A stretch of 64,000 nucleotides of DNA from a bacterium (GCA_965216315.1 CBDCFN010000015.1:423801-487800), one strand, 5' to 3'. Counted from the stretch's first letter, positions 3 to 52,981 are shown. Program-made: numbers and translations. The notes: a model not told the origin generated them from the letters alone.

Positions 3-554
3 CACGAAATCGAGCTTCGTACAATTGACAACAAGCAACGGACTTTCATTATAGTCAAAAAAGAAAGACTTGTAAGCCTCCAAGACGTTTTCCAGGTATT
101 CGATTTTCAGTTTTTTTTCATAGGCGACTTTGCGTTGTTTGACGTGTTTTTTGAGCTGGTGCGCATCGGCCTCGAGGTAGATTACGAGGTCCGGTTTGGG
201 CAGGCCTTCGATCAGCTCGGTGTAAAGCTGCCGGTAGAGTTGGAGTTCGTCGTCTTCCAAGTTGAGTTCGGCAAAGACCCAATCTTTAAGAAAGGAATAG
301 TCGCTGATCGTAATGCCTTCCGACTCCGCTTCTCGCTGCAGGTGCTGCTGTTGCTGGTAGCGCGAGAGCAAGAACGCCAGTTGGGTTGAAAAGGCATAAC
401 GTTGGGGGTCTTCGTAAAAGCGTTGCAAGAAGGGGTTCTCGTCTGGTTGTTCGAGAAAGAGTCGGGCATCCAGGTCCGCGGCGAGGCGTTTGGCGAGGCT
501 GGTCTTGCCGGCCCCGATCGGGCCTTCGATTGCGATGTAGCGAGGTTGCGACAT
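3..554 (-). CDS. Deoxynucleoside kinase (dNK family), 3'-truncated by the window edge
   Basis: Not in the ORF track. Manual translation from ATG 554 gives MSQPRYIAIEGPIGAGKTSLAKRLA...ENPFLQRFY, the P-loop and ENPFL motifs of dNK. Confidence 0.88.
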   Translation of the reverse strand, partial: MSQPRYIAIEGPIGAGKTSLAKRLAADLDARLFLEQPDENPFLQRFYEDPQRYAFSTQLAFLLSRYQQQQHLQREAESEGITISDYSFLKDWVFAELNLEDDELQLYRQLYTELIEGLPKPDLVIYLEADAHQLKKHVKQRKVAYEKKLKIEYLENVLEAYKSFFFDYNESPLLVVNCTKLDFV

Positions 555-690
555 ATAGGATGGCTCTACCAGACCGAAGGGGCATTGTCTAAGAATTGCG
601 TAATATGCGACCAAATTGGTCATCTATTGCATTTCCCGCTATAATCTGGTTGACTCAGCGATTCAGGGCACAATGGAGAGGACTTGATAA

Positions 691-2802: not shown

Positions 2803-3258
2803 CTACGCGATCACCTTGAGCGACCGGATCTCCTGAAAATCTTGATCAAAGGTGACGAGGTGCACTTTTGGTACTTCCTTGAGAAATAGCAGTATCAAAA
2901 CGTCATGGAAATTAAAACGGCCCTGGTGACGTGTCATGGTAGTGATAATTGTCTTGTAGTGAGTGGGAATCAATTCGTAGAGGCAAAGGATCGGGTAATC
3001 GCTAATTGCGGCGCGGAATCGCTTGGTGAAATTGGCAAATTCGGCCTGCAGGCCTTTGGATTCGCAGCGTTTCGCAAAGACGCTCAAGACTTCGTTAATG
3101 ATGGCATCGCTAATAAAAAATTGGACTTCGACAGTTTGGATTTCCGTCAATAAATGAACGGCCCGTGCGTGATGGACATCGCGGGCGTCCAAGAGGGCGA
3201 CCAGAAAATTGGCATCCAGCAGATATTGCGGGAGCTTATTCGAAATACGCATCGGCAT
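2803..3258 (-). CDS. PIN-domain (VapC-like) toxin
   Basis: YLLDANFLVAL...HHARA...INEVL...FHDVLI...LVTFDQDF acidic PIN motifs; start overlaps the antitoxin 3' end (ATG 3258 or 3252). Confidence 0.85.
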   Translation of the reverse strand: MPMRISNKLPQYLLDANFLVALLDARDVHHARAVHLLTEIQTVEVQFFISDAIINEVLSVFAKRCESKGLQAEFANFTKRFRAAISDYPILCLYELIPTHYKTIITTMTRHQGRFNFHDVLILLFLKEVPKVHLVTFDQDFQEIRSLKVIA

Positions 3259-3472
3259 CTTCGACCGCATCGCCACCGAGGGAGACGATGCCAACCAGCT
3301 TCTTGAGATCTTGTTGGGGTGGCTGCTTGATCGGACGCACTGAGTCTTCTTTTTCCAAGAAATCGCGGATCAAGGCCATTACCAAGCCGGTCTTTTTGTA
3401 GCCTTGTTCCCGACAAACTTGGTCCAGTTTTTTCGCCAGTTCAGGCTCAAGTCGTAGGGTAAATGCGGACAT
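3236..3472 (-). CDS. RHH/CopG-family antitoxin
   Basis: MSAFTLRLEPELAKKLDQVC...KTGLVMALIRDFL ribbon-helix-helix pattern; directly upstream of the PIN gene; GAGGAG RBS. Confidence 0.8.
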   Translation of the reverse strand: MSAFTLRLEPELAKKLDQVCREQGYKKTGLVMALIRDFLEKEDSVRPIKQPPQQDLKKLVGIVSLGGDAVEDADAYFE

Positions 3473-3496
3473 GTCATTTATCTCCTCTGTACATTA

Positions 3497-3525
3497 ATGG
3501 TATCAAAAGGTATCATTTGATGCAA
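3497..3525 (-). promoter_or_regulatory. sigma70-like promoter of the RHH-PIN operon overlapped by a TGATACC direct repeat (putative operator)
   Basis: Minus strand TTGCAT-N17-TACCAT; TGATACC occurs twice in the spacer and -10. Confidence 0.6.
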
Positions 3526-3539
3526 GAAGGTTGCTTAAT

Positions 3540-3567
3540 AAAAAAGGCGGCCCTAAGGCCGCCCTTT
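3540..3567 (-). terminator. Intrinsic terminator after lacD
   Basis: GGCGGCC-TTAG-GGCCGCC hairpin followed by a T-run on the minus strand. Confidence 0.7.
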
Positions 3568-3582
3568 AATGCAAATCTTGAC

Positions 3583-3607
3583 GGGCGCAGCAAGCAGCGC
3601 CCCTACA
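3583..3607. repeat. REP-like palindrome (GTAG family)
   Basis: GGGCGCAGCAAGCAGCGCCCCTACA; near-identical at 25319-25343 and, inverted, at 46955-46979. Confidence 0.8.
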
Positions 3608-3612
3608 ATCAA

Positions 3613-4620
3613 CTATTCAACCTCAAACAAATCTTTCCAGGGCTTCGCGCCTTTTTCGAGGACGTCGTTGAGCATCTGGATATTCTGCACCCCGCGGTCT
3701 TGGAGCCAGGTTTCCAGTCCGGCTGCGCCTTCTTTACCGAAAATCGGAATGCCTTCTTTCCAGGTGGCTCGTCCGCAGAGCACGCCGTTGTAGGACACAC
3801 CCGCTTCACCCGCCAACTCGAGACTCTCGCGGAACTCCGCATCACTGACCCCGGCGGAGAGGTAGATGAAAGGCAGCTTGGTGGCACTCGCGGCCTCGCG
3901 GTAATGGGCGAGGGCGTCTTGCATTGAATATGCGACCTGGCCGGCAAAAGAGCGGCTTCCCTCGATGCACTTGACGTTGACCGGGATCTCCACCTTGAGG
4001 ACCGAGACGTGATACTTAGGGTCGGAATATTCCGCCATGCTTTTGGCGACAATCTCCGGTTTTTTCTTGGCGTATTCGACATCGGTCTTGGGGTCTTCAT
4101 CGTTGAGGCCGTAACCGACAAACTCCAAGAAGAAGGGCATGTCATGGGCATCACATTCTTCCCCGACCTTTTGGGTGAAGTCGTGTTTTTGCGCGTTGAT
4201 GCCGGCGTCTTCATCCGGGTGATAATAGATCAACAGTTTAATCGCGTCGGCGCCGGCTTCCACGGCTTGGGCGACGCTCCAGTTCTCTAAGAGTTGAGGC
4301 ATCTTGCCGGGGACGGCATTGTCATAACCGGTCTGTTCGTAGGCCAGGAGCAGGCCCGCGTTTTCGCTGCGCTGCTTGGCGGCTTCAAGGCCGTATTCAG
4401 GATCCAATAAAATGGCGCTGGCATAAGGGGTCAGGACTTTCGTGACCACCGTTTTGAATTCCGCCATCACTTCATCGGTGATTTCCGATGGCGTCAGCCC
4501 TCGCTCTTTGGCGATGGACTTTTTGAGTGAGCCGCGCTGATCCATGGCGGCGGCTGAGATATATCCCTTGTCGTGGCTCAATCTGAGCATGCGGTCGAAT
4601 TTCTTTTTACTGATCTTCAT
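3613..4620 (-). CDS. lacD: Tagatose-1,6-bisphosphate aldolase (class I, LacD family)
   Basis: AAMDQRGSL, AILLDPEYG, LLAYEQTGYD, LKVEIP, YLSAGVS, GVLCGRATW. Confidence 0.88.
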   Translation of the reverse strand: MKISKKKFDRMLRLSHDKGYISAAAMDQRGSLKKSIAKERGLTPSEITDEVMAEFKTVVTKVLTPYASAILLDPEYGLEAAKQRSENAGLLLAYEQTGYDNAVPGKMPQLLENWSVAQAVEAGADAIKLLIYYHPDEDAGINAQKHDFTQKVGEECDAHDMPFFLEFVGYGLNDEDPKTDVEYAKKKPEIVAKSMAEYSDPKYHVSVLKVEIPVNVKCIEGSRSFAGQVAYSMQDALAHYREAASATKLPFIYLSAGVSDAEFRESLELAGEAGVSYNGVLCGRATWKEGIPIFGKEGAAGLETWLQDRGVQNIQMLNDVLEKGAKPWKDLFEVE

Positions 4621-4638
4621 TGAGTGAATCCTCCTAAA

Positions 4639-5826
4639 TTAACTTAATGCTTCCTTCATTCTCTTTAAGCCTGCTTTGATGTTTTCCATCGAGGTGGCAT
4701 AGGAAAATCTGACATAACCCTCGGCCCCAAAACCGATCCCCGGAACGACGGCAATCTTGGCCTGGTCGAGTAAATAGTCGGCGAGTTCTGTTGAGGTACT
4801 AATTGTCTGGCCTCCAAACGCTTTTCCGAACAGGCCACTGACGTTGGGAAAGACGTAAAAGGCGCCTTGGGGGGTCGAACATGAGACGCCCTCAATCTCA
4901 TTGAGTCCCGCGACGATGACGTCGCGTCGCTTTTGAAACTCTGCGACCCAATCGTTGAGAAAATCTTGGGGGCCGTCGTAGGCGGCGACGCAGGCCCACT
5001 GGGTCGCCGTGGCGATATTGGTTGTGACCTGCCCCTGGAGTTTGGCGCAGGCCCGCATGATTTCGCGCGGTCCGGCGACAAAACCCATGCGCCAGCCCGT
5101 CATGGAATAACATTTACTGGCGCCGCTGCAGACGATGCTCCGCTCTTGCATGCCGGGTTGCTCAGCGATGCTGCTAAATTCAAACCCGTCGTAGATGATT
5201 TTTTCGTAGATATCGTCAGTTACGACCAGAACGTCGCGCTTTTTGAGGACCTCGGCGAGGGCCCCCAGTTCATCGCGGCTGTAAGCAGCACCTGTCGGAT
5301 TGGAAGGGGAGTTTAAAACAAAGTATTGCGTTTTTTCAGTGATGGCGGCGTCCAGTTGTTCGGGCGTGACCTTGAAACCGTTGCGGTCGGATGTCTCGAT
5401 GATGACCGGCTTGGCATCGTTGAGTTCAACTTGGGGTGGATAGCTCACCCAGTAAGGGGCTGGGATGATGACTTCGTCGCCCGCTTGCAAAAGGACCTGG
5501 GCTAAATTGTACAGGGAGTGTTTGCCCCCGCAGGACACAACGATCTGGTCCGGTTCGTACTTGAGGCCCTGATCCCGTTCCAACTTGTTGATGATTGCGG
5601 CCTTGAGTTCGGGGATGCCATCAGCGGCCGTGTACTTGGTTTTGCCGGCCTTGAGGGATTCGACGGCCGCGGCCTTAATATGTTCCGGCGTATCAAAATC
5701 CGGTTCACCGGCGCCAAAGCCAATCACATCAATACCATCCGCCTTCATTTGTTTGGCCTTGGTTGTGATGGCCACTGTCGGTGAGGGCTGGATGCGTCCG
5801 ATGCGTTCTGAGAGTCGGTAAGCCAT
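4639..5826 (-). CDS. aspC: PLP-dependent class I aminotransferase (aspartate aminotransferase)
   Basis: GAGEPDFDTP, NSPSNPTG, DDIYE, SKCYSMTGWRMG (PLP lysine). Confidence 0.88.
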   Translation of the reverse strand: MAYRLSERIGRIQPSPTVAITTKAKQMKADGIDVIGFGAGEPDFDTPEHIKAAAVESLKAGKTKYTAADGIPELKAAIINKLERDQGLKYEPDQIVVSCGGKHSLYNLAQVLLQAGDEVIIPAPYWVSYPPQVELNDAKPVIIETSDRNGFKVTPEQLDAAITEKTQYFVLNSPSNPTGAAYSRDELGALAEVLKKRDVLVVTDDIYEKIIYDGFEFSSIAEQPGMQERSIVCSGASKCYSMTGWRMGFVAGPREIMRACAKLQGQVTTNIATATQWACVAAYDGPQDFLNDWVAEFQKRRDVIVAGLNEIEGVSCSTPQGAFYVFPNVSGLFGKAFGGQTISTSTELADYLLDQAKIAVVPGIGFGAEGYVRFSYATSMENIKAGLKRMKEALS

Positions 5827-12934: not shown

Positions 12935-13060
12935 CCAGAAATAAGCATTTTAGCATATTATAACTAATTGAAAATATTGAATAATATATTTATTGTATAA
13001 AAATAAGCAACTATGCTAAAATGGGGAGCGATAAAGATAGTAACGATAAAGGAATTTTCG

Positions 13061-13471
13061 ATGAACATGTCGCAGGCTCAAAAAGATCTGACAATTGATG
13101 ACCATGCGGCTCACGCCTTGGGCAAGGTGTTTTGGAATCTCGTCAAACACTGGCAGTTAGGTCCGAAGGATCAGGCCTTGATTCTGGGTGTGAAATACCA
13201 CGTCACAAAACTAAAGGAGTGGCAAAAGAAACAGATTATTCCCGAGGACCCCGACAAGTTTGCCCGTGTGGGTCACTTGGCCGGTATCCATAAGAATTTG
13301 CGCATTCTCTTTCCGTATAATCGCCGTGCGGTCTATGATTTTATGAAGACCAAACAGGATTTCTTATTCAACGGCAAGAGCCCACTTGAATTGATTCACG
13401 AGGGTGGACCGATGAATTCCTACAGTAACATCGCCGCGATCCGCCGGCGCCTCGATCAAATGCGCGTTTAA
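13061..13471 (+). CDS. Xre/MbcA/ParS-type antitoxin
   Basis: N-terminal HTH-like segment (QALILG); C-terminal FNGKSPLELI...RRRLD; directly upstream of a RES gene; AAGGA RBS before ATG 13061. Confidence 0.8.
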   Translation: MNMSQAQKDLTIDDHAAHALGKVFWNLVKHWQLGPKDQALILGVKYHVTKLKEWQKKQIIPEDPDKFARVGHLAGIHKNLRILFPYNRRAVYDFMKTKQDFLFNGKSPLELIHEGGPMNSYSNIAAIRRRLDQMRV

Positions 13472-14208
13472 TGGAACTCCCTCGCTTAAAGGCGACTCCC
13501 TATACAGGGCAGGTGTATCGTAACATTTTTACTTGTTCGCCAAGCCAGTATCTCTTGGACGATGTCTGTGCGGTGAAGGATTATGATTTGGTCGATGCTT
13601 TCATTCAAAATACTTCGGGCATCGATCACAACGAACCGCAAGTCAATCGGCCGTTCCAGTATGGCAACATTGAATCGGAAGAAATCCTCGCCGTCTTCAA
13701 GCGGGAGAACTGGGGTTATGGGCGTTTTGGAGACGGTAAGAGTTACGGGGTTTGGTATGGGGCGGAAGAAGAAGCGACCTCAGTCTGCGAGGCGAGTTGG
13801 ACCGCCTATCGGCTGGCTCAGGATAATATGAAGGGACATGGTGAAGTCTATACAACCGATCGCGCGATGTATCAGGCGCGGCTGTCATCCGAGTTAGCCG
13901 TTGATATCACGACGTCGAGGAAATACGCGAAGCCACTGCGTCATCCGACCGATTATGCTTTTTGTCAGGCCCTTGGCCAAGAGATGAATGCGGTAGGTCA
14001 TGAAATCTTACGAACGCACTCTGCCCGCAAGACAGACGGTATCTGCACACCGGTATTTGCCCCACAGGCAATCAAGCAGGTGACACGCAGCTATGATCTT
14101 AAGATCAACGTTTCGCCGGATGGATTCATTGGGATCAGCTCGGCTCATGAGGCGATGAACTTTTCGCTGTCGGCTGAGCAGTTGAGAGATCCCTATGGGC
14201 TACGGTGA
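13471..14208 (+). CDS. RES-domain toxin (NAD+ phosphorylase-like)
   Basis: VYR, GRFGDG..GVWYGA..E, DY..CQ..G, SAR motifs. Confidence 0.85.
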   Translation: MELPRLKATPYTGQVYRNIFTCSPSQYLLDDVCAVKDYDLVDAFIQNTSGIDHNEPQVNRPFQYGNIESEEILAVFKRENWGYGRFGDGKSYGVWYGAEEEATSVCEASWTAYRLAQDNMKGHGEVYTTDRAMYQARLSSELAVDITTSRKYAKPLRHPTDYAFCQALGQEMNAVGHEILRTHSARKTDGICTPVFAPQAIKQVTRSYDLKINVSPDGFIGISSAHEAMNFSLSAEQLRDPYGLR

Positions 14209-23283: not shown

Positions 23284-24234
23284 ATGAAAAAAACTATTAC
23301 GAGTCTCGGTGAGTTCGGAGTCATCCGCGAACTTTTGAGAGGCCTCCCTGCCTACGGCGTTGGCGACGACGCCACGGTATTGCCGCGGTTTAATAAACAA
23401 ACATTGGTGACGACAGATCTCTTGCAAGAAGGGGTTCATTTTGAACGCCGTTGGGCGTCTTGGGCGGACGTCGGGTTTAAGGCCCTGCAAGTGAATATGA
23501 GTGACATTGCGGCGATGGGCGGACGGCCCCAATACTATTGGCTGACCCTGTCTTTGCCCCGCAATTTTCTCGTTGCGGACCTGCGCCAATTGCGCGCCGG
23601 ACTCAAGCGCGCAGCGCGGCCGTACCAGCTTCGTTGCGCCGGCGGGGATACCAACCGGTCGAAGCAGGGTGTCTCCGTGGCAGTGACGCTGCTGGGCCAG
23701 GTGGGGAAATGCGTTGTCCCCCGTGATGGCGCGCGGGTGGGGGACGATATCTATGTGACGGGACAGCTTGGAGAAGCGGCATTAGGTTTGGCCATATTAT
23801 CGAAGCAGCGGCGAGTCGCACAAACCCAAGCGCGTTATGTTCGCCGCCAACTGCGACCGATGGCTCGGGTGAAAGCCGGTCAGGCCCTGGCCGCGCTCGG
23901 CGTCCACGCGATGATCGATGTCAGTGACGGACTTGGTGCAGACCTGGGACATGTTTTAGATGCTAGCGGTGTTGGTGCCCACCTTGATGCAGAAGTTCTG
24001 CGACCGAGCCCGACGTTTCGGCAACTCTGCCAACGACTGAAACGACCGTGGCAAGACTTTGTGTTGTGCGGCGGCGAGGACTATGAATTATTATTTTGTG
24101 CGCCGTCGCGACTGGCGGTGCGGATTCAAGGGTTAAGTCGGCGTTTGAAGCTCCCGATGACAAAAATCGGGCGCATCGTCCGAGCCGGACAATCCCAATT
24201 TTTCAAACAGGGTGGTTATGAGCATTTTAGCTAA
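23284..24234 (+). CDS. thiL: Thiamine-monophosphate kinase
   Basis: GEFGVI, GVGDDA, NMSDIAAMGG, GGDT, IDVSDGL, GGEDYEL. Confidence 0.95.
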   Translation: MKKTITSLGEFGVIRELLRGLPAYGVGDDATVLPRFNKQTLVTTDLLQEGVHFERRWASWADVGFKALQVNMSDIAAMGGRPQYYWLTLSLPRNFLVADLRQLRAGLKRAARPYQLRCAGGDTNRSKQGVSVAVTLLGQVGKCVVPRDGARVGDDIYVTGQLGEAALGLAILSKQRRVAQTQARYVRRQLRPMARVKAGQALAALGVHAMIDVSDGLGADLGHVLDASGVGAHLDAEVLRPSPTFRQLCQRLKRPWQDFVLCGGEDYELLFCAPSRLAVRIQGLSRRLKLPMTKIGRIVRAGQSQFFKQGGYEHFS

Positions 24235-25318
24235 AACATTGACCCTCAAGATCGAGCGCCTGGCCCACGGCGGTGAGGGCGTGGCACATCACGAAGGCAA
24301 GGCGATCTTTGTTCCCTTTGCCGTCCCCGGTGATACGCTCCGTGTTGAGATAGAAGTCGATAAGCCCCGTTATGCTCGGGGGCGTATTGATGAGATACTC
24401 GAGTCGTCGGCTGAACGGGTCGAACCACGCTGTCCCCTGTTTGGTCAGTGTGGGGGCTGTCAGTGGCAACATATCGATTATATGGCTCAGGTGCGCCACA
24501 AAGAAACCATCTTTCGCGAGACCTTAGAGCGCATCGGTCGCATCGAAGCGCCACCGCTGGAACCCATTATTGCGTCGGATCAGCCCTGGAACTATCGGCG
24601 TCGCATCCAATTAAAGAATGATAATGCGGGTAGCGTTGGTTTTTACGCCTACGGGAGCCATGACGTCGTGCCGATGAGTCACTGCGACATTTGTGACCCG
24701 CATCTCAATGAAGTCTTGGCTCAGGGTAAGGTTCCGGCCCGTGATCTCGAATTGAGTTGGAATGGGCAAGAAATCACATTGCGTTATGGGGAGCATCGCA
24801 GCTTTGAGCAGGCGCATCCCGGCCAGAATCAGCAGCTTGTGCAGACGGTCCGCGACTACGTGGCACCACGTTCGCACCAGCAAGTCTTGGAGCTTTATTG
24901 TGGCAATGGTAATTTCACGCGAGCGCTGGCACCCGAGCTTAAGCATATTTTCGCGATTGATGAAAATGCCGAGGCCATCGGACGGGCGGAACGCCGGATA
25001 CGGCGGCTCGGATGCAAGGGGGTTCATTTGCTGGTTGGCACGGCGACCTGGGGATTGAAGAAGGTGATCCGTGACCAACAAGCCATCGATACCCTCTTAA
25101 TCGATCCGCCTCGTGCCGGGGTGAAAGCCATCCTGAATCTCGTTGCGAAGCTCAATCCCCAGCGCATCGTCTATGTCTCCTGCGATCCCGCCTCCCTGGC
25201 CCGCGACCTCCGCTATCTCATCGAGCACGGTTACCGCCTCGCCCGCACCCGGCCCATTGATATGTTCCCGCAGACTTATCACATTGAATCAGTTACCGAA
25301 CTTGTACGTGCCGAGTAA
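24218..25318 (+). CDS. rlmD: TRAM-domain 23S rRNA m5U methyltransferase (RlmD/TrmA family)
   Basis: TRAM N-terminus, CPLFGQCGGC, ELYCGNG, DPPRAG, YVSCDP, DMFPQT.HIE. Confidence 0.85.
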   Translation: MSILAKTLTLKIERLAHGGEGVAHHEGKAIFVPFAVPGDTLRVEIEVDKPRYARGRIDEILESSAERVEPRCPLFGQCGGCQWQHIDYMAQVRHKETIFRETLERIGRIEAPPLEPIIASDQPWNYRRRIQLKNDNAGSVGFYAYGSHDVVPMSHCDICDPHLNEVLAQGKVPARDLELSWNGQEITLRYGEHRSFEQAHPGQNQQLVQTVRDYVAPRSHQQVLELYCGNGNFTRALAPELKHIFAIDENAEAIGRAERRIRRLGCKGVHLLVGTATWGLKKVIRDQQAIDTLLIDPPRAGVKAILNLVAKLNPQRIVYVSCDPASLARDLRYLIEHGYRLARTRPIDMFPQTYHIESVTELVRAE

Positions 25319-25343
25319 GGGCGCAGCAAGTAGCGCCCCTACA
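25319..25343. repeat. REP-like palindrome (GTAG family)
   Basis: GGGCGCAGCAAGTAGCGCCCCTACA immediately after the stop codon. Confidence 0.8.
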
Positions 25344-25825
25344 GGCATAATCGCTTAAAATATCAATATTTATAGGGATTTGACTTGGCGCGTCAGCCTG
25401 CCTCGCCGGCAAGGCAGGGAATTCCTCCTTGAAAGCCGCCCCTAAAAAGCTTACAGACATAAGGGTAGGCCTCGATCAGGAAGGCGGGGCCCTGGAGAAA
25501 ATATTTTTTTATCATAATTTAAAAAAAAGGATGCCCCAGGGTGGCACTTAAAAAATCTTTTCTAATGCGCGGGAGCGAACCCATTAATGGACCTCATAAG
25601 ACTCTCCTGACGCCAGGTAGCAATATGAGAGCAGACCTCACATTCATCGTACACTTGGAGATTTTGCTCTCTTAGGCCGAATTAAGAAAAGACCCACCCC
25701 TAGAAGTACAAGAGCATCCCACATTACAGGATGGTAGCGACTGTCGCCATTTCGTTTGCAGCTGCGGTGAATAGTCTGAAGTAGCCAGCCGACAGTGGTC
25801 GGCAGAGTCGTTAGCCTCTTAACAT

Positions 25826-28117
25826 ATGTCCAAACTGAATCTTGACCGTGACAAGATCCATTTGAGTCGCGAACTGGCCAAGCGGATTACCGAACGGGTG
25901 TGTCGAACAACAGAAAAATTTACAACGGAGTCGATAGAGCGGGCGAGCTTGCGCCTGCTTGGCATTGAGGATGCTTACGAGGGAATCCCGGTGGCCAATC
26001 TTATTTTGGAGTCTTTGCCTCCAGAGGCGCGATCCCAAGGGGTCTGCTACTGGTTTGGGCGGGGTCTCGCGACTCAAAGAACCAGCCCGATTGCGCTGGC
26101 CTTGCGTGTGGCCAGTGGCAAAATCAAATTAACCGAACTTCCTGAGGCGTCGCCTGAGGAGATCAAAAAGGCATTGGAACCGCTGGTACGGAAAAGCCTG
26201 GACAAGCTTCATCAGGCGGCCCTGCGCAAGAGCGATATGGAACGGCGTTGGCCGAATCGCACCCGGCCGCTTAAATACGTCAGTGTCGGCACAGGTGATA
26301 TCAAGCAAGATGTCGAGCAAGCCAAGGCAGTGGCCGCAGCCGGGGCTGATTGTATTGGCTTGATGCGTTCCTCCGGCCAAAGTTTGATGGAGGCGGTTCC
26401 CCAGGGCGAGACGGTTGACGGGAACCAGGGCACCTTGGTGACACAGGCTAATTTGCGGCTGATGCGTCAGGCCCTGGACGCGATCTCAGAAAAGTCGAAT
26501 CGATATGTCCGGTTTGTGACGACGGGTTCCGGATTGGCGATGCCGGAGTTTGCTGTCATGGCCTCACTGGAAAACGTTGATTTTCTTTTGAGCGATGCAT
26601 TGTATGGTATTTTATTTCGGGATATTAACAGCAAGAGAGCCTTTACCGACCAAGAATTTGCAAGGTTGGTTCTGGCTCATTCCGGCGTTATCATTAACAC
26701 CAGCGAAGATCAGTATCTCGCCTGTGCTGAATCTTACCGGGCCTTTCCTCAGGCCTTGGCTTCCTTGTTTTTGAATGAACAGTTTTCATTTCGAAGTCGT
26801 CTTAGGGAATGGCAGATGGGCTTTTCTCATGCCTATGAGATCGATCCGGAGATGGAAGATGGCTTTTTGTACGAAGTGGCGCAGGCCCAGATGGTACGGG
26901 AATGTTTTCCCAAGGCGCCGATAAAGTATAAGCCCCCAACCCGGCATAAGACGGGTGATATCTTTTATTCCCATCTCATGGACGGACTCTTTACGATGGT
27001 AGGCGCCATGACCCATCAAGATATCCAAGAGCTCGGTACGGCGACGGAAGCGGTTCATCATCCCCTGCTGATGGATAGGCATTGGTCTCTCAAGGCGGCT
27101 AATTATGTTCTTAATAATACGCGCAGTCTTGGAGATGAGATTCAGTGGTCTGCGAATGGTAAAGTTGTAAGGCGCGCACGAAGCGTTCTCGACGGGGCGT
27201 ATCGACTCCTCGAAAAAATAGAAAAAACCGGCGGCTTATTGAAAGGCGTCAGCAACGGCGTTTTTGCCAATGTGTCGCGTCATCCCGAAGAAGGCCTTGG
27301 CAAGGATGGGCTGATTGAAAAAGGCGCCGAGTATTACAATCCCATTTGGGAAGCGCTCTTAAAGCAAGACTTGGCCGATATCATGATCGCGCCGGCATCT
27401 CACCGACGTTATGCGAGCTATAAAACGGGTGGCGGCCGTTCAGATCGCGGCGGCCGATCGGATCGTGGTGGTCGTTCGGATCGCGGCGGCCGTTCCGACC
27501 GTGGCAGGCGCTCGGAACGCGGTGGACGCAACGACCGTGGCGGCCGCTCGGATCGGAGTGGGCGTTCGGATCGCGGAGCACGACAGGGCCAGTCACGCTC
27601 ATCCAATCAACGGCGTGGACGCGAACGCGAAGACGAAACGCGCAGTAATGAATCGCGGGGTCGTGGTTCGAGGGACCGTAATCGCCAGGATCGCAGCTCG
27701 CAGCGACGCGACCGTGAACGTCGCCCGGATCGGAAAGGAGAGGCTGCGGCCAGCACCAACGTAGCGGAGGAAAAACCGATAACTCCCGAACCTATTGTGG
27801 GAGAAGTCGAAGCAGTAACCGTGGCAGCGGTAGCGTCCGAGGTTCCCAATGAAACGACGGTAGCGACGGCAGACTATGGCGAAGAAATATCTGTAGAAGA
27901 ATTTGAGGAGTCTCCGGTAACAACGGAGGAAGACGAAGTTGAAGCGGGTGATGAAGAGTTAGATATTGATGTGGCCGTTAATGATGAAGAAGAGACAACA
28001 GTTAAATTAGCCTATAACCTCGATGACGTGGACGAAGCTCCCTATGAAGAAAGCGATGAAAGTGACGATGCGGAGGGAGAGGATAATGCTGAGGTTTATA
28101 GTGGGGAGGAGGAGTAA
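25826..28117 (+). CDS. kamD: Lysine 5,6-aminomutase alpha-subunit-like protein with a ~250-aa disordered C-terminal tail
   Basis: MSKLNLD, TTESIERASLRLLGI, SGLAMPE, DALYGILFRDIN, HAYEIDP, PIKYKPPTRHKTGDIF, TEAVHHP, YYNP. Confidence 0.85.
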   Translation: MSKLNLDRDKIHLSRELAKRITERVCRTTEKFTTESIERASLRLLGIEDAYEGIPVANLILESLPPEARSQGVCYWFGRGLATQRTSPIALALRVASGKIKLTELPEASPEEIKKALEPLVRKSLDKLHQAALRKSDMERRWPNRTRPLKYVSVGTGDIKQDVEQAKAVAAAGADCIGLMRSSGQSLMEAVPQGETVDGNQGTLVTQANLRLMRQALDAISEKSNRYVRFVTTGSGLAMPEFAVMASLENVDFLLSDALYGILFRDINSKRAFTDQEFARLVLAHSGVIINTSEDQYLACAESYRAFPQALASLFLNEQFSFRSRLREWQMGFSHAYEIDPEMEDGFLYEVAQAQMVRECFPKAPIKYKPPTRHKTGDIFYSHLMDGLFTMVGAMTHQDIQELGTATEAVHHPLLMDRHWSLKAANYVLNNTRSLGDEIQWSANGKVVRRARSVLDGAYRLLEKIEKTGGLLKGVSNGVFANVSRHPEEGLGKDGLIEKGAEYYNPIWEALLKQDLADIMIAPASHRRYASYKTGGGRSDRGGRSDRGGRSDRGGRSDRGRRSERGGRNDRGGRSDRSGRSDRGARQGQSRSSNQRRGREREDETRSNESRGRGSRDRNRQDRSSQRRDRERRPDRKGEAAASTNVAEEKPITPEPIVGEVEAVTVAAVASEVPNETTVATADYGEEISVEEFEESPVTTEEDEVEAGDEELDIDVAVNDEEETTVKLAYNLDDVDEAPYEESDESDDAEGEDNAEVYSGEEE
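27431..27574 (+). repeat. Eight tandem 18-bp coding repeats (GGRSDR)
   Basis: GGRSDR x4, GRRSER, GGRNDR, GGRSDR, SGRSDR with synonymous variation. Confidence 0.9.
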
Positions 28118-28120
28118 GTC

Positions 28121-28963
28121 ATGAGAGAGGCACACGAAAGAGAACTGAGGCCTTATGGCCATCATTTGGCGGATGGATTGGTGCAGTTATGCTTTACTCT
28201 CCCCGTGAAGTGCAATGCGGAGGCGCAACAGGCAGCCGTGGCCTACGCGCAAAAACTCGGAATTGTCGATAGCCGTGTGACCTGGATGGAGGCGATGGGC
28301 GAGGATTTCACGTATTTTATTCTTTATGGCAAGGCACAGCCGGTATTGAATCGCGCTGAACTAAAAGGTTTAGTTGGGGATTTGCCGCGAGTCGCTGAAA
28401 AACCGTGCGATGTCGACAAGGAGTTTCGCCAGCGCCTGGGAAGGCGTGCCGTCATTTTAACGTGCACGGATGGCATGGGAAGCGGCGAGATTGATTTTGA
28501 GGCGATGACGAGCCTCAAAGGGATTTCGGGCGAGATTGGCTTGGAGGGATATTCTACCTTCAGTGTGAAACGCTTTCGTGGTCCCGACAGTGTAGACGCG
28601 ATTGTTGACGCTGCCCAAAAATCGAAGGCGGACGCCTTGCTCGTGTGCGAACCAACACGTGGCTGGGGAAAGGGTGAAAAGGCCCTCAAGGATCTAGCCA
28701 AGAAAATATCAAAAAATAAGGACTTACCGGCATGGTTTGTCCTCGCGTGCTGGCGACGCGATCCCGCGCATGCGGGAGAAGGAGTTGCGGGTTACCAGTT
28801 GTCTTTTGGTCGCGGTATTCAGCCAAGTCGGGTTGCCGATCAGCTGGTTTCGGCTCTGGATAAAGGTGGCCTCGGGACTGGTGGCGGATCAAGTAGGAAT
28901 GAGCCACAAGAATCGTCTGGCAAGAAACGTCGTCTTTGGGGAATTCTTGGGCGGAATAAATAA
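28121..28963 (+). CDS. Degenerate lysine 5,6-aminomutase beta-subunit-like protein
   Basis: RPYG....DGLVQLCFTLPV, FTYFILYG (OAM/LAM dimerisation domain); SLKG..GE.GLEGY; no DxHxxG motif. Confidence 0.75.
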   Translation: MREAHERELRPYGHHLADGLVQLCFTLPVKCNAEAQQAAVAYAQKLGIVDSRVTWMEAMGEDFTYFILYGKAQPVLNRAELKGLVGDLPRVAEKPCDVDKEFRQRLGRRAVILTCTDGMGSGEIDFEAMTSLKGISGEIGLEGYSTFSVKRFRGPDSVDAIVDAAQKSKADALLVCEPTRGWGKGEKALKDLAKKISKNKDLPAWFVLACWRRDPAHAGEGVAGYQLSFGRGIQPSRVADQLVSALDKGGLGTGGGSSRNEPQESSGKKRRLWGILGRNK

Positions 28964-28971
28964 GGGACTTC

Positions 28972-29898
28972 ATGTCCGGTATTGGAGTCGTCCTCAATCC
29001 GCATTCAAAGCGTTATCGCAAGGCACCTGATCGCCTCGATCAGATGGCCTTTATTGTCGGTGAACGAGGACATTGTAAGGCGACGCAAGATCTTAAAGAT
29101 CTGGAAGCCGTTGCCCTCCAGTTTCGCGCCAAACAGATCGATATTCTTGCCCTCTCCGGTGGCGACGGAACCATTCATAATACATTGACGACTTTCATCA
29201 AAGTGTACGGTGATGAGCCGTTGCCCCGTATTTCTTTTTTGAGGGGAGGGACACTGAATACCATTGCGGCGTCATGCGGAATTTTTGGGAGTCCTGAGAA
29301 ATTGCTGATGAATTTGATTTACCATTATCATCAGGGGACGCCGTTTAAAGAAACGACGATTCGTTTAATGAAGGTCAATGACAGTTACGGCGTCATCTGG
29401 GGTTGCGGGGTGATCTTTCGGTTTATGGATGCTTATTATCAGAAAGGGGTCGGATCACCGAGTCATGCGGCTTGGACTTTAGCACGCTCCATCGGCTCCG
29501 CGCTGTTTAATATGCGGTTTGCGCGTGATATGTTCCGACGCTTTGACGGAGAAGTAACCATCGAAGGGAAGCCTTGGCCGTATAAGAATTATAGTGCGAT
29601 CTACGCGGGTTCGATTCGGCAACTGGGCCTGAATTTCAATGTATTTTACGGGATCGACGACGAGCATCCGTTTCATGGAATCGGCTTCTCGTTGCCGCCG
29701 CGCAATGTACTCCGCTATGTCCCCTACATGTTCAGGGGTAAATCGTCCGGTTGTCCCGATTTGCTCGAATCGGGTGCCACGCGCATGGTGGTTCGTCTCG
29801 GCGAGGCGCAGGCCTACACAATCGATGGCGACATGTACCCGCCTGCAGATTTTTTCGAAATCACGCCGGGGCCGAAACTTCAGGTGGTTATTCCGTGA
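28972..29898 (+). CDS. Diacylglycerol/sphingosine kinase-family protein
   Basis: VLNPHS, SGGDGT, RGGTLN.IA, YTIDGD. Confidence 0.85.
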   Translation: MSGIGVVLNPHSKRYRKAPDRLDQMAFIVGERGHCKATQDLKDLEAVALQFRAKQIDILALSGGDGTIHNTLTTFIKVYGDEPLPRISFLRGGTLNTIAASCGIFGSPEKLLMNLIYHYHQGTPFKETTIRLMKVNDSYGVIWGCGVIFRFMDAYYQKGVGSPSHAAWTLARSIGSALFNMRFARDMFRRFDGEVTIEGKPWPYKNYSAIYAGSIRQLGLNFNVFYGIDDEHPFHGIGFSLPPRNVLRYVPYMFRGKSSGCPDLLESGATRMVVRLGEAQAYTIDGDMYPPADFFEITPGPKLQVVIP

Positions 29899-29936
29899 GC
29901 TTCATGGCATTATGAGTCTCAAGAAGGAGACATACT

Positions 29937-30194
29937 TTGAAGATTTCTCAACGCCTGATTCAAGCCACGCTATTCACGCTTTTAATCATTCCGCTCGTTG
30001 GTGCCGATAGCTGCAGTAGTGCTGTCGAACGCGCCAACGATGACGAGGAAAAGACGGTCCCTTCGGCAGATGTTTCACCGGATACTATTGGTCATGCGGA
30101 TAAGATGCCTGTGTTGCCCGAAGGTGACGAGGGGGAAAAATTGCTGAAGAGCGGTGGTCCTGAGGTTATTTCGATTCCACCCTCAGGGGAGTAA
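29937..30194 (+). CDS. Small exported protein or lipoprotein
   Basis: AAGGAG RBS with TTG start; hydrophobic N-terminus followed by Cys. Confidence 0.55.
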   Translation: MKISQRLIQATLFTLLIIPLVGADSCSSAVERANDDEEKTVPSADVSPDTIGHADKMPVLPEGDEGEKLLKSGGPEVISIPPSGE

Positions 30195-30917
30195 GACCGC
30201 TGACGGAATGTCTTTTTCAGCCTGCTCATAGGCCGCCATTGTGCCTAGATCGCGCCAATACCCGTTATAGATAAATCCCTGTATTGCTTCGCCTGCTTCG
30301 ATAGCTGGGCGATAGGCCGCTTGAAAGATGCAAGAGAAGCCGTCCGGTAAACGTTCTAATAGTCTCGGATCGATAATGTGTAGCCCCGTGAACATCAGTG
30401 GATTTCCGTTTTTGCGGGCGTCGATCTCGGAGCTACTTGCTGTTGAGATGATGCGGGAGTTGTCATCGATGAAGAGGGCGGTCGGGCGTTCATCGGATCC
30501 GGATTGGATCGGATGAGGGCGCAAGACCATCGTTGCGAGCGCGCCGCTTTGCTGATGCGCTACCGTCACGGCACTCAGCTCGACTTCGCTCAAGATATCC
30601 GAATTGATCACCCAGAAACTCTCATTACCGACATGTTCTGCCATCTGCTTGATGCCACCGCCTGTGCCGAGGATTTCACGTTCTTCGGAATAGGTAATGG
30701 TGACGTCGAAGCGACTTCCATCGCCAAGTGTCTCTCGAATCTGATTGCCTAAATGATGTAGATTGATGATGAGATCCGTCAAGCCGTGTTTCTTGCAGAG
30801 GGCAATGGCATATTCAATCAACGGGTGGTCATTGAGGGGAATGAGGGCCTTAGGGATCGTATTAGTGAGTGGGCGCAGTCTAGTGCCTAGGCCCGCAGCG
30901 AGTATCATCGCTTTCAT
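30183..30917 (-). CDS. murU: NDP-sugar nucleotidyltransferase (MurU-like)
   Basis: MKAMILAAGLGTRLRPLT..PKAL, LGTGGG, WRDLGT; coupled to amgK. Confidence 0.8.
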   Translation of the reverse strand: MKAMILAAGLGTRLRPLTNTIPKALIPLNDHPLIEYAIALCKKHGLTDLIINLHHLGNQIRETLGDGSRFDVTITYSEEREILGTGGGIKQMAEHVGNESFWVINSDILSEVELSAVTVAHQQSGALATMVLRPHPIQSGSDERPTALFIDDNSRIISTASSSEIDARKNGNPLMFTGLHIIDPRLLERLPDGFSCIFQAAYRPAIEAGEAIQGFIYNGYWRDLGTMAAYEQAEKDIPSAVLLP

Positions 30918-31957
30918 GACTGCCACTCCGGTACATATTTCTTGAGCCGTTCATAAAACTCCTTTAGCTCCGTCTGCCGGAGCAGTGCTTCTTTAACATA
31001 ACCTAAAGTATCCCCGATATAGGGCATAAAATTGGGATTTCCTTTCTCCTGCGCAATAAAGACAAAGCGTCCCGCATCCTTGAGCTTGCGCTGAATCGTC
31101 ATCCAGTCGAACATGTGCGAAAATTGCTGACGGTCATATTGCTGGCCGTAGCGATCAGCCTGGAGATGGAGGAACTCATCAATCAATGATTCACGCAGCC
31201 GTCGATCGAGGACAATATAAGAATCGCGTAACAACGCAACAAGATCGTAGGTCACGGGACCGATCAAGGCATCTTGAAAATCGATCAACCAAAGCCTGTC
31301 ACTATGGATCATGAGATTGCGACTCTGATAGTCGCGATGCACGAAGACCTGCGGTTGTTGCAACACGGAGTCGACAATTTTAGCGGCGCTCGCGTCAAAG
31401 AAGGTTTTATCGTCAGTGTCGATCACCGTGTTCAGCCGTCTTTCAATTCCATATTCAAAAAAGTGATCCAGTTCCCATCTTAATAGTTTGTCATTAAAGT
31501 GGCGCTGGAAAGCGACGCAGTCACCAGGGTTATCGGTTTTGTTTTGGAGATCTACAAGCAGTGCGACAGCTTGTTTATAGAGCGAAACTTTTGCTTCAAG
31601 CGGCTTGCCCTTGATTTCATTCTCAAGCAAGCGGTCGCCTAAGTCTTGCAGTATGATAACCCCGTCGCGTTCCGAAGCCGCGACAATCGAGGCGACGGGA
31701 AAGTTCCTTGCCTGGAGGTAGCGCGTCACATTGAGGAATGGCAGCTCATCAATCGTAACATCACTATTACTGATTTCTTCACTAACACTCCATTTGCCTG
31801 CCGGTATGGCCATGACGACATAGCTGCGCCCGTCCGGTAAGCGGACTCGATGGTAGCTTCGGTACGATGCGTGGGCATGAAGCTCGACAAGTTCAAACTC
31901 ATTAGTGTCGAGCTTAAGATGAGCTTTTATTTTAGTTCTGAGTTGCGTGTCGTTCAT
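30914..31957 (-). CDS. amgK: Anomeric MurNAc/GlcNAc kinase (APH-like)
   Basis: HASYRSYHR, QDLGD, HRDYQSRNLM, IDFQDA..GP..YDLVALLRDSY, QRKLK. Confidence 0.82.
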   Translation of the reverse strand: MNDTQLRTKIKAHLKLDTNEFELVELHAHASYRSYHRVRLPDGRSYVVMAIPAGKWSVSEEISNSDVTIDELPFLNVTRYLQARNFPVASIVAASERDGVIILQDLGDRLLENEIKGKPLEAKVSLYKQAVALLVDLQNKTDNPGDCVAFQRHFNDKLLRWELDHFFEYGIERRLNTVIDTDDKTFFDASAAKIVDSVLQQPQVFVHRDYQSRNLMIHSDRLWLIDFQDALIGPVTYDLVALLRDSYIVLDRRLRESLIDEFLHLQADRYGQQYDRQQFSHMFDWMTIQRKLKDAGRFVFIAQEKGNPNFMPYIGDTLGYVKEALLRQTELKEFYERLKKYVPEWQS

Positions 31958-50471: not shown

Positions 50472-50576
50472 CGGTTCATGAAACGGCAAACCCATCGTGA
50501 GGTGGGGACGCAAAGCCACTGGGCCCGTGAGAGAGGCGAAGCCGTCATCTCACAGGCTGGCAGGGCTGCCAAGGAA
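50472..50576 (+). ncRNA. Cyclic di-GMP-I (GEMM) riboswitch
   Basis: GGCAAACCCATC-GTGA-GGTGGGGACGCAAAGCC...GGCAGGGCTGCC matches the class I consensus; lies in the 5' UTR of 50667. Confidence 0.85.
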
Positions 50577-50666: not shown

Positions 50667-51248
50667 TTGAAAATGTATACAAAGATGAAAAAGGTTGTCG
50701 TTTCGGTTGTCGCTGGGATTGTTTGTGTTGTGATGCTGAATGTAGGGACGACGAAAGATGCGGATGCACAGGAGGTAGCGGATTATGCATTACTTGCCGG
50801 ATATATTTCGTTGGTAGCGCTTATCAATACGACCGAGTTGGGCAGGAATGTTTGCCCTGCCTATCAGGGGATGTCGAACGCAGTTGAAGCCATCCCAGGC
50901 CATGCTGAAGACGCCGAAATGGCCAATGCCGATGGAGATGATTCTGGAGAAGTAGCGGGAACTTCTGCGGCCATGGGCGCAGCGGATGCTTATATGGCGA
51001 CGTCGCAATCATGCGAGGGTGACTCGGCGGATGAGGCGCGCACGGCGATGCAGGCTGCTTCGGAGGTCCTACTTGATTTAAGGAGTCAGGCGATCGCGCG
51101 ATTGAGCCAAAATAGCTGTGGTAATGAAGTCGTTGATAGCGGAGAGCTGTGTGACTACACGGCGGACCCCCTAACCTGGAACTGTCCTCCGGATACGTTG
51201 ATCTGTACGATCAATTGTGAGTGCCAGGGTGGCATTATAGTTGAGTAA
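50667..51248 (+). CDS. Exported protein with a Flp-pilin-like segment and a Myxococcus-type Cys-rich repeat
   Basis: Hydrophobic N-terminus; DADAQEVADYALLAGYISLVAL; CGNEVVDSGELCD. Confidence 0.65.
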   Translation: MKMYTKMKKVVVSVVAGIVCVVMLNVGTTKDADAQEVADYALLAGYISLVALINTTELGRNVCPAYQGMSNAVEAIPGHAEDAEMANADGDDSGEVAGTSAAMGAADAYMATSQSCEGDSADEARTAMQAASEVLLDLRSQAIARLSQNSCGNEVVDSGELCDYTADPLTWNCPPDTLICTINCECQGGIIVE

Positions 51249-51970: not shown

Positions 51971-52981
51971 TTGATAGCTAGCTTCTCGAACATGGCGAAT
52001 CTGACGCTCGGTCAATCCGCGCTCGTCCTGGCCTCCGTTTCTAATCATTTAATCGAACCGCATCTCGAAGCCAACTTTGATCAGTTTGATCATTACGCGG
52101 CCATCACACGTTCAGCCAATTTTCGTAAAGCTCTCACGGCTTTGGGATCGGTGCGAGAGCTGTGCCATCAAAACGTTCCTGAAGACGATGTCGATTTAGA
52201 GTTGGATCGGAGTGTGCTCCTGCTATGGCGGACTGCCGTTCATGATGTTGCCACACTTCCAGCGCCGGAGCGCATCTTGCTCGCATCAGCGTTGAATACG
52301 GTGGGGCGTTTGACCTTGGGACAACGCGAAGACGGGATGACGCGGGATCGCTTGGTACAGCTTTATATGGCGGCGGCAACTTTTCTGAGTGTTGAAGAGG
52401 AACGCGCGGTTGAAGTGGATGGCGCCACGTTGTTTGCGGAAGACTGTTTATTATCCGGAATTTTAATTTCCGCGCTCGGACGGCTTGATCGCGATGCTTT
52501 GCTGCCAAGGCACCGTCAACCGATTGTCGCGTTGATGTATCGAATGGGGATTGTAAATTTGATCAAAAATCTGCCGCTGCACGGGTTTCACCTGCGCCAT
52601 CTCTCCCATGCTACCCAAGCTCTCTTTGGCATTGACGTCGATCGTATCAATGAGTTTCTCTCACTAGCGTCTACCAGTTATCTTCGCGAGGCAATCGACT
52701 GGGATGGGGTCCGGGGCTTTCAGCAGTATGTGATCCCCGCGCTGCTCGATTCGATGTGCGTCGATGAAGGTTATGGTGTGCTACAAGAAGGGGTTCGGAC
52801 GTTTCCGGAGGATTTTACCTTGCGACGCATGCAACAAATCGTCGGGCCGCGGTGCCCAGAAAAAGTTGATCTCACGCTTGTGTTGAGCTTACTTGAGATG
52901 TGCGGGAGTTGCGACCGACCACTATCCCGCAGCACGCCGCACATCGCGGATTTTCTGCGGCAAGCTGGCCTCGGAGCTTAG
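51971..52981 (+). CDS. Hypothetical alpha-helical protein
   Basis: 336-aa ORF preceded by a sigma28-like motif at 51872-51898. Confidence 0.6.
   Translation: MIASFSNMANLTLGQSALVLASVSNHLIEPHLEANFDQFDHYAAITRSANFRKALTALGSVRELCHQNVPEDDVDLELDRSVLLLWRTAVHDVATLPAPERILLASALNTVGRLTLGQREDGMTRDRLVQLYMAAATFLSVEEERAVEVDGATLFAEDCLLSGILISALGRLDRDALLPRHRQPIVALMYRMGIVNLIKNLPLHGFHLRHLSHATQALFGIDVDRINEFLSLASTSYLREAIDWDGVRGFQQYVIPALLDSMCVDEGYGVLQEGVRTFPEDFTLRRMQQIVGPRCPEKVDLTLVLSLLEMCGSCDRPLSRSTPHIADFLRQAGLGA

Follow-up and report, generated by a model that had tools for sequence, protein, structure and literature searches.

Loss of the cobalamin site and retention of the fold in a lysine 5,6-aminomutase-like gene pair: a candidate pseudoenzyme

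Here I examine two adjacent genes, kamD* and kamE*, that lie in a 64,000-nucleotide stretch of bacterial DNA (GCA_965216315.1 CBDCFN010000015.1:423801-487800, hereafter the window) and resemble the genes for the alpha (KamD) and beta (KamE) subunits of lysine 5,6-aminomutase (5,6-LAM), a radical enzyme that uses both adenosylcobalamin (AdoCbl) and pyridoxal 5'-phosphate (PLP). The reading that I favor, at a probability of roughly 0.55, is that the two genes encode a pseudoenzyme which persists because of a role outside catalysis that its bifunctional ancestors already had. It is well supported, as far as sequences can tell, that the AdoCbl-dependent aminomutase function has been lost and that purifying selection has continued; since the KamD and KamE folds are kept under such selection, the pair would act as a pseudoenzyme, and the protein probably serves a second purpose that is not enzymatic. 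A preliminary description of this DNA had already proposed a repurposed enzyme, and the lost cofactor motifs, the isolation from the pathway and the conservation described below agree with that, although its idea that tails were gained along with the loss does not hold. To my knowledge, the B12/PLP radical aminomutases have been studied only as catalysts, and no description of a non-catalytic derivative was found among the titles and abstract openings of the papers listed by literature search.

In true 5,6-LAM, His133 of the beta subunit, within the motif DxHxxG, is the lower axial ligand of cobalt (the base-off/His-on state) and Lys144 of the same subunit forms the imine with PLP (PMC3958899). 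When KamE* is aligned to the solved subunit 1xrs_B, the residues T-D131-A-H133-T-V-G136 stand opposite M-G120-S-G122-E-I-D125 (query string DGMGSGEIDFEAMTSLKG), meaning that the D, H and G of the motif (DAHTVG in 1xrs_B) are all replaced, and K144 stands opposite K133, so that the PLP lysine is kept; the earlier claim that the histidine is absent and the lysine remains is therefore confirmed against a solved KamE, and every string quoted in the preliminary description is found in the translations. The fuller B12 signature reads DxHxxG...SxL...GG, and further along the same alignment C-G-G (220-222) is opposite C210-W211-R212 and V-S-Q-T is opposite V-C-E-P, the residues in canonical relatives being GGPR where KamE* has Trp211-Arg212. 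The only Pfam family matched by KamE* is PF16554 (OAM_dimer, N-terminal dimerisation; 76.5 bits, residues 9-81), a genome-wide search with the B12-binding family PF02310 gave eight other proteins over the cut-off and no match at kamE*, and the score against the NCBIfam beta equivalog NF052385 is 117.1 bits, below the cut-off of 280. The fold itself is predicted to be kept: the AlphaFold2 (AF2) model, built on an 11-row alignment, has a mean predicted local distance difference test (pLDDT) score of 81.8 with both domains present and residues 255-280 unstructured, and its top Foldseek matches are the KamE chains 9q1a_B, 8t0v_D and 1xrs_B (E 1e-17 to 1e-13), followed by the B12 domains of methylmalonyl-CoA and glutamate mutases. 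That the pair works as a base-off/His-on AdoCbl aminomutase appears very unlikely, and this conclusion is well supported by the comparisons above.

The same state is found in the close relatives. A word-indexed search returned 10 relatives of the beta subunit at 43-75% identity (the nine full-length ones at 43-60%), and in the resulting clade alignment of 11 sequences, with 44 invariant columns, DxHxxG occurs in none, so the His-less state of KamE*, being common to all 11, is not a matter of chance. Trp211 is nearly invariant among these betas, and the position of Lys133 is K in eight of the 11 and E or Q in three (P0005, P0010, P0011). By comparison, DxHxxG...K is present in 78/80 loci (one genome per species), and the two loci without it, L002 and L003, come from metagenome-assembled genomes (MAGs) labelled 'Deltaproteobacteria' or 'Pseudomonadota' that have the gene order of the window. 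When 1.84 billion representatives were searched exhaustively with HMMER, five came from the clade (244-466 bits), followed by a gap down to 172 bits; among the rows of at least 200 aa, 24 more lack the D-x-H-x-x-G string, some of the part examined having a His in a variant motif. Eight KamE-like proteins outside the clade are also His-less (P0136, P0148, P0152, P0142, P0161, P0206, P0144 and P0182, with strings such as DAYALAMD), two of them ending in KSLWRWFG- or KVWQFFKG-type tails, and ligand loss is therefore not unique to the clade of the window's family (f1).

Divergence from two relatives was estimated as nonsynonymous (dN) and synonymous (dS) substitutions per site: dN is 0.14 and 0.29 for the alpha core, 0.33 and 0.51 for the beta core, 0.25 and 0.30 for the downstream kinase gene discussed below, and 0.54-0.90 for the tails, where alignments are unreliable; dS is saturated or undefined in every comparison, which limits the estimate to dN and a bound. 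The pair thus combines lost cofactor residues with purifying selection (dN 0.14-0.51 against saturated dS), the two marks of a pseudoenzyme that can be read from sequence alone. It is highly improbable that kamD* and kamE* are instead a functionless, decaying relic that happens to be still undisrupted, since the reading frames remain intact in three genera of the window's family as well as in some 10 other sequences from metagenomes (43-60% identity), dS is saturated against the low dN just given, a clade-specific linear motif and a C-terminal motif (both described below) are conserved, and four neighbouring pathway genes were cleanly removed with these two left in place. A relic would nevertheless account for the vanished pathway, for the truncated KamE of the relatives G023 and G001 and for a beta subunit that evolves faster than alpha (the beta/alpha divergence ratio is 1.43 between the window and G024, and about 1.1 in 91 canonical pairs).

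The alpha subunit, KamD*, matches Lys-AminoMut_A (PF09043) with 579.5 bits over residues 4-509, scores 580.5 bits against the NCBIfam alpha equivalog NF052384 (Lys_5_6_mutase; cut-off 600, not reached) and has 8t0v_A, 9q1a_C and 1xrs_A as its closest chains in the Protein Data Bank (PDB; E 1e-136 to 1e-129). The alpha contacts to PLP are Arg184, Gly187-Ser189, Tyr236, Ser238, Tyr263, Arg268 and Asn299 (PMC3958899). When KamD* is mapped on 1xrs_A, the equivalents of Arg184, Gly187-Gln188-Ser189, Ser238, Tyr263, Arg268, Asp298 and Glu341 are kept, that is 9 of the 11 listed PLP and active-site residues, with Tyr236 replaced by Thr and Asn299 by Gln; an alignment of 115 canonical KamD has 144 columns conserved at 95% or more, and seven clade sequences retain 107 of these and differ in 37. 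Could the pair, then, still be an enzyme, either holding PLP in the barrel for non-radical chemistry on lysine or a related diamine, or binding a cobamide or other cofactor His-off in its Rossmann domain? I consider this unlikely. It is true that the equivalents of Arg184, Gly187-Gln188-Ser189, Tyr263, Arg268 and Glu341 are found in 6/6 clade alphas and that of Ser238 in 5/6 (Ala in P0015), that Lys133 is found in most of the betas, that the modelled Rossmann fold is retained and that the organism makes or uses AdoCbl; however, two of the published PLP contacts, Tyr236 and Asn299, are replaced along with a quarter of the conserved columns (37/144), 3/11 betas have Glu or Gln in place of the PLP lysine, the change from GG to WR would, judged from the motif, place bulky side chains in the pocket of the nucleotide tail, there are no pathway neighbours, and parallel lineages in which the PLP site has been wholly lost have kept their proteins as well.

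The genome of the window (G000; 2.96 Mb, 98.3% complete) has one PF09043 match and one KamE-like match, and the check for a second intact kamDE that the preliminary description had suggested thus gave none. Genome-wide, there is no match to LAM_C by profile search and none to kamA, kdd or kal by tblastn (E<=1e-3), and the statement that no lysine-fermentation genes adjoin the pair proved correct, as kamA, kdd, kce and kal are all missing from its neighbourhood. A tblastn search with the KamA and Kdd proteins of relatives over positions 24000-31000 of the window reached E 0.39 at best, and none of its weak hits fell within the 507 bp that precede kamD*, so that no relic of either gene was detected in this spacer. 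Queries for alternative lysine catabolism (lysine aminotransferase, piperideine-6-carboxylate dehydrogenase, acyl-CoA dehydrogenase) gave only generic matches of 30-35% in this genome. The organism uses AdoCbl: it encodes a PduO-type adenosyltransferase (205 bits) and eight proteins with a B12-binding domain; no CobA/BtuR match was found in it. The genome's only BKACE gene (C15:412629-413462, 297.7 bits, 35-37% identical to the relatives' Kce) lies outside the window, about 37 kb upstream of kamD*, within a segment (G000:C15:403333-414962; L085, L086, L141) that also encodes, a few kb away, two B12-binding-domain proteins of 500-530 aa; the BKACE gene may belong to a pathway other than lysine fermentation.

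The origin of the pair becomes apparent from its phylum, sampled here as 93 genomes of a single class in a small phylum of former 'Deltaproteobacteria' MAGs. A KamE-like match is present in 63/93, and the score of the clade profile exceeds 380 bits in family f1 alone (G000, G024, G025); in 30 loci scanned by pattern, KamE was located in 16, with DAHTVG in 12, absent in three (all f1) and without a motif readout for one. Canonical context was surveyed with Pfam in 117 open reading frames (ORFs) of 13 loci, the ORFs being longest-ORF calls and minus-strand references in the canonical-locus scan being offset by one codon at each end. In all 13, kamA (LAM_C plus Radical_SAM) lies directly upstream of a kamD scoring 715-776 bits and KamE carries PF02310; a BKACE gene is found in six, a DAGK_cat gene downstream in eight, an RlmD-like (tRNA_U5-meth_tr-type) methyltransferase upstream in two (L124, L133; both without a TRAM match) and, on the downstream side, MurU/AmgK-like genes in two (L128, L135). 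By NCBIfam, the gene at -3 is Kdd (197.8, cut-off 200) and the small gene at +1 is Kal (157.5, cut-off 160). The canonical order is kdd-kamA-kamD-kamE(-kal-kce)-DAGK-like with flanks as in the window, and the window corresponds to this frame minus kdd, kamA, kal and kce. In quick trees, the f1 clade (support 100) has a stem of 0.55 inside a clade of support 99 with canonical f14-f17 for alpha, and a stem of 1.04 substitutions per site, followed by ordinary branch lengths, inside a clade of support 98 with the canonical KamE of the phylum for beta. The pair is a remnant of a lysine-fermentation operon that was ancestral in the phylum.

Both subunits carry tails that the canonical enzyme of the structures does not have. 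The 254-aa tail of KamD* (aa 510-763) holds eight hexapeptide repeats at aa 536-583 (five exact GGRSDR and three variants; Tandem Repeats Finder gives period 18, 8.1 copies and 69% matches over 27431-27576), and its charges are split between an Arg-rich block (aa 536-660, +38/-23) and an acidic block (aa 661-763, +1/-41), much as had been described beforehand. Such an Arg-rich low-complexity stretch occurs in one of the 2547 called ORFs of the genome and is therefore not a product of chance. KamE* ends in ...GGLGTGGGSSRNEPQESSGKKRRLWGILGRNK, and all 10 full-length clade betas end in [KR]3-4-x-hydrophobic-G-hydrophobic-G-R/K. The suggestion of a MinD-type amphipathic membrane anchor stands in so far as a conserved basic-hydrophobic motif is present at the C-terminus; the amphipathic helix has no statistical support, as the hydrophobic moments of 0.40-0.64 are equalled by 11-52% of shuffles and the AF2 model shows no helix over residues 255-280, where pLDDT is below 50.

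The tails were not acquired together with the loss of the B12 site, because canonical KamDE of the same phylum are already Arg-rich in the alpha tail and basic-hydrophobic in the beta tail. Canonical, DAHTVG-bearing KamE of sister families have tails of the KKGRSLFGWLGGGG type or KKRRRRGRRGGRRHRK, including KKGRSLFGWLGGGGEDS, KKRRPLLGWLGGGGEDS, KKSSLLGWFGGGSEGV, SSKKRGLLSWFGN or PKRLSLFGWLSGGGKGS in families f14-f17 and the KKRRRRGRRGGRRHRK type in f5, and inside complete operons the canonical KamD of f8, f9, f14-f17 and f18 extend into Arg-rich tails, which range in length from about 35 to 290 aa, with KamD ORFs of up to 933 aa in f8. On one active-looking canonical KamD (L133 of G032, aa ~520-802), the RG-rich tail is longer than that of KamD*, comprising about 290 aa of (GRGRGNDRDR)-type repeats and the end GRRRGRRGGRGRGRRGGRGPRPP. 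The tails are thus older than the loss of the B12 site. What is new in the f1 clade is the long acidic block (clear in the window, G025, P0012, P0014 and P0017; mixed in P0013, P0015 and P0016) and the motif [IA]PAS[HR]RR[YF] just after the barrel (in the window IAPASHRRYASYK, aa ~521-533), which is found in five of 120 listed alpha homologues in addition to the window and G025.

Degeneration with retention is a recurrent theme in this phylum. A PF09043 match is present in 83/93 genomes (61/63 of high quality) and a LAM_C match in 55/93, the latter being absent from all of f1, f2, f3, f4, f7, f10, f13 and f19. LAM_C is missing from 38 genomes; a KamD-like match persists in 28 of them, scoring below 600 bits in 27, and the remaining 10 are mostly 60-90% complete, with the exception of G026 (98%), whose locus yielded no KamD-like ORF with the family HMM at E<=10. 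All 22 loci that were read have an undisrupted KamD-like ORF of 402-695 aa (for the most part 450-580), and in 19 the kinase gene follows this ORF either immediately or with nothing but a KamE remnant in between. Several degenerate KamD-likes have basic C-terminal tails; G023 (f2) has a tail-less KamD-like protein of 488 aa next to a KamE-like that matches profile positions 96-278 only and ends in KRSLWNIFGRK, and in G001 (f3) KamE is reduced to an N-domain of 156 aa whose end is polybasic. KamD-likes without kamA outside f1 have lost nearly all PLP residues. On the alpha tree, the label 'degenerate' needs six changes, at least five of which are forced by branches with support of at least 95 in the SH-like approximate likelihood ratio test (SH-aLRT), the degenerate G074 falling inside canonical f18, G063 inside f16, and G083 and G086 with f20 and f22, and the degenerate state of KamD accordingly arose at least five times independently. 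Within this series, the pair of the window, with its PLP phosphate site intact, may represent the earliest stage of conversion into a pseudoenzyme.

One genome, G010 (99% complete, 2% contamination), has both forms (L165/L162, contigs C16 and C44): one contig carries kamB/kamC-like genes below the cut-offs, a kamD of the canonical type (770 bits) and a PF02310-bearing kamE, and the other carries kamA, a kamD* (247 bits), a kamE* with OAM_dimer only, and the kinase gene. If the contigs share one organism, the two sets amount to a separation of the two forms within one genome. The flanks of the KamD-like gene in families f3 and f4 encode L-lysine 6-transaminase (659.5, cut-off 520.8) and piperideine-6-carboxylate dehydrogenase (780-802, cut-off 730), meaning that a different lysine-catabolic route is in place of the fermentation genes and that the locus is still tied to lysine catabolism in some lineages, though not in the genome of the window. 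An acyl-CoA dehydrogenase gene also flanks the degenerate KamD-like gene at L143 (G001, 261-4422) and L146 (G007, 3197-4741).

The kinase gene that follows the pair encodes a protein with a PF00781 (DAGK_cat) match of 39.2 bits (cut-off 23.6), which reaches 32.9 against NCBIfam YegS/BmrU, well short of the cut-off of 118.65. Its GGDGT motif (G63-G64-D65-G66-T67) is invariant in 31 sequences with a mean column identity of 55%, and the AF2 model (pLDDT 87.2) has the two-domain fold of DgkB, YegS and SphK1-like kinases (Foldseek 4wer, 2qv7, 2p1r, 3vzd; E ~1e-16, TM 0.65-0.72); look-alike kinases mostly carry the atlas label Myxococcota. The earlier remark that a gene resembling a diacylglycerol (DAG) kinase follows the pair is right, but the gene is no peculiarity of the degenerate form, being present in 88/93 genomes of the phylum and in 63/63 of high quality, with or without KamD; it is a core gene, and adjacency alone is for that reason no proof of partnership. 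Dependence of the kinase on KamD was considered and rejected, as those 63 genomes include G026, where the family HMM gave no KamD-like ORF even at E<=10. Outside the phylum, no DAGK-like gene was found within 8 kb of kamE (78 loci, mostly Actinomycetes).

How might a non-catalytic role have come to be all that is left? In the pseudoenzyme scenario, the ancestor in this phylum would have had the operon kdd-kamA-kamD-kamE-kal-kce, with tailed enzymes that had a second role besides catalysis; the window's family would then have lost the four other pathway genes and the base-off/His-on hallmarks of KamE; and finally, with lysine fermentation gone, the second role alone would have been kept, the two proteins most likely still forming a KamD/KamE heteromer. 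This retained role would be structural or regulatory and would reside in the clamp and oligomerisation parts, which are conserved, together with the charged or basic-hydrophobic tails, which may bind a polyanionic surface such as membrane or nucleic acid, and there may be a link to the DgkB/YegS-like kinase encoded in the same direction; surface tethering through the tails, partnership with the kinase or sensing of an amine could each be what the role consists of. Membrane anchoring, RNA binding and condensate formation, as put forward in the preliminary description, are hypothetical for this pair.

A more specific proposal, in which PLP on Lys133 locks the beta Rossmann domain onto the barrel and lysine or beta-lysine frees it, changing the action of the tails or of a partner as a ligand-gated switch or sensor, is rather improbable. 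A large domain motion on transaldimination is established for 5,6-LAM and ornithine aminomutase (OAM; PMC3958899, PMC4256349, PMC12429584), and the true enzyme cycles between open and closed states; the window keeps the PLP site and Lys133, and the f3/f4 KamD-like gene adjoins the lysine 6-transaminase and piperideine-6-carboxylate dehydrogenase genes mentioned above. Yet the lysine is missing in three of the 11 clade members, the PLP site is wholly gone in the more degenerate KamD-likes, and no lysine-catabolic genes were found in the genome of the window with the queries used. It is likewise a long shot that KamD, active or dead, is a moonlighting partner or regulatory subunit of the downstream kinase whose tails recruit the complex to an anionic surface (e.g. 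the membrane), with the PLP-competent, B12-less KamD*/KamE* as a lysine- or amine-gated switch that couples amino-acid status to lipid phosphorylation.

Several points weigh against the pseudoenzyme reading as a whole. There are corrinoid proteins in which no His ligand takes part in cobalamin binding, and loss of the motif alone is consequently no proof of lost B12 binding; the whole phosphate site and Glu341 are kept in all six clade alphas, as is Lys133 in the window, so ligand-binding and even catalytic function is possible for KamD*/KamE*. The KamE* tail motif is not significantly amphipathic when its hydrophobic moment is compared with shuffles, the kinase adjacency may be plain conserved synteny, and G026, without KamD, has other genes upstream of its kinase (the two G026 genes have no match in the genome of the window). 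The relatives are all MAGs, the contig pair of G010 could be a binning artefact given its 2% contamination, and both trees were quick searches, that of alpha with 51 rows.

Table 1. Positions of the gene pair, its parts and its immediate neighbours, counted from the first nucleotide of the window.
Feature	Position	Strand	Basis or content
kamD* (alpha, KamD-like)	25826..28117	+	763-aa ORF
kamE* (beta, KamE-like)	28121..28963	+	280-aa ORF
DgkB/YegS-like soluble kinase gene	28972..29898	+	308 aa, DAGK_cat, GGDGT motif
Spacer, 507 bp, rlmD-like methyltransferase to kamD*	25319..25825	.	Position of kdd and kamA in canonical relatives
KamD* TIM-barrel domain, aa 1-509	25826..27352	+	PF09043, 579.5 bits
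KamD* disordered tail, aa 510-763 and stop	27353..28117	+	Motif IAPASHRRYASYK, Arg-rich block, acidic block
Eight tandem 18-nt / 6-aa repeats, aa 536-583	27431..27574	+	Tandem Repeats Finder and protein regex
Domains of KamE*	28121..28963	+	Dimerisation (N-terminal) aa 9-81, Rossmann (ex-B12, degenerate) aa ~108-249, tail aa 250-280
Former DxHxxG cobalamin-ligand site, now G-S-G-E-I-D, aa 120-125	28478..28495	+	Alignment to 1xrs_B, 8t0v_C
Lys133, counterpart of PLP-binding Lys144-beta	28517..28519	+	Alignment to 1xrs_B
Trp211-Arg212 where the B12-binding fold has Gly-Gly	28751..28756	+	Alignment to 1xrs_B
C-terminal basic-hydrophobic motif KKRRLWGILGRNK of KamE*	28922..28960	+	Clade alignment

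The three co-directional ORFs are separated by 3 nt (kamD*/kamE*) and 8 nt (kamE*/kinase) and are flanked by rlmD upstream and, beyond the kinase, by MurU and AmgK on the opposite strand. Rfam gave no riboswitch or other element at the locus, its matches in the window being a tRNA and a c-di-GMP-I riboswitch elsewhere, and a promoter and terminator scan of 25200-30300 gave no more sites than shuffles. The riboswitch (60.8 bits, 50475-50573, +) lies about 90 nt before a 193-aa ORF without a Pfam match (50667-51245, +). Elsewhere in the window are a 2496-aa ORF without a Pfam family at E<=1e-6 (52981-60468, -), a RES-domain protein after a 152-aa ORF (13013-14205, +) that could form an Xre-RES type toxin-antitoxin pair, and, separately, a PIN-domain protein (2806-3294, -).

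What makes this phylum of value to enzymologists and annotators alike is that it provides a graded natural series, from active and tailed enzymes through the B12-less form of the window with its PLP site intact to forms with a one-domain beta and finally an alpha shell only, each stage being an intact ORF and, in most of the loci that were read, in the same chromosomal position. With this series, and with a genome that has an active and a dead copy, the other role of the scaffold becomes directly testable, and the pair offers a case of the route from moonlighting to pseudoenzyme. It also carries a warning for annotation, since 'lysine 5,6-aminomutase' labels in MAGs of this phylum do not imply lysine fermentation.

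Compared with the solved KamD/KamE (1XRS, 8T0V, 9Q1A), the pair shares the two-gene alpha/beta layout, the barrel (aligned over residues 2-515 with 458 bits to 8t0v_A), the beta dimerisation domain and Rossmann fold, most PLP contacts and the PLP lysine, but differs in having no DxHxxG, no GG and no Pfam B12 match, in NCBIfam scores below the cut-offs, in lacking kamA, kdd, kce, kal, kamB and kamC as neighbours, and in its 254-aa charged alpha tail and 31-aa beta tail. The canonical tailed KamDE of the phylum (L123-L138) share its chromosomal frame, Arg-rich alpha tails and basic-hydrophobic or polybasic beta tail, and unlike the window have DAHTVG, the Lys, PF02310, PF09043 scores of 715-776 bits and full operons. 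The degenerate KamD-likes of f2, f3, f4, f10, f13 and f19 are likewise intact KamD-derived ORFs before the kinase without kamA, but their KamE is reduced to one domain or absent, leaving the window's pair as the least degenerate stage. The C-terminal membrane-targeting sequences of MinD and FtsA resemble the end of KamE* as short basic and hydrophobic motifs after a flexible linker, whereas KamE* has no hydrophobic moment above shuffles and no predicted helix; the C-terminal scaffold of RNase E resembles the tail of KamD* in composition only (long, disordered, with Arg-rich and acidic blocks) and has no sequence relation to it, and the possible membrane motif here lies on the partner subunit of KamD*. 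Finally, the neighbour of the pair shares DAGK_cat, GGDGT and the two-domain fold with the DgkB/YegS lipid kinases, and yet scores far below the NCBIfam YegS/BmrU cut-off.

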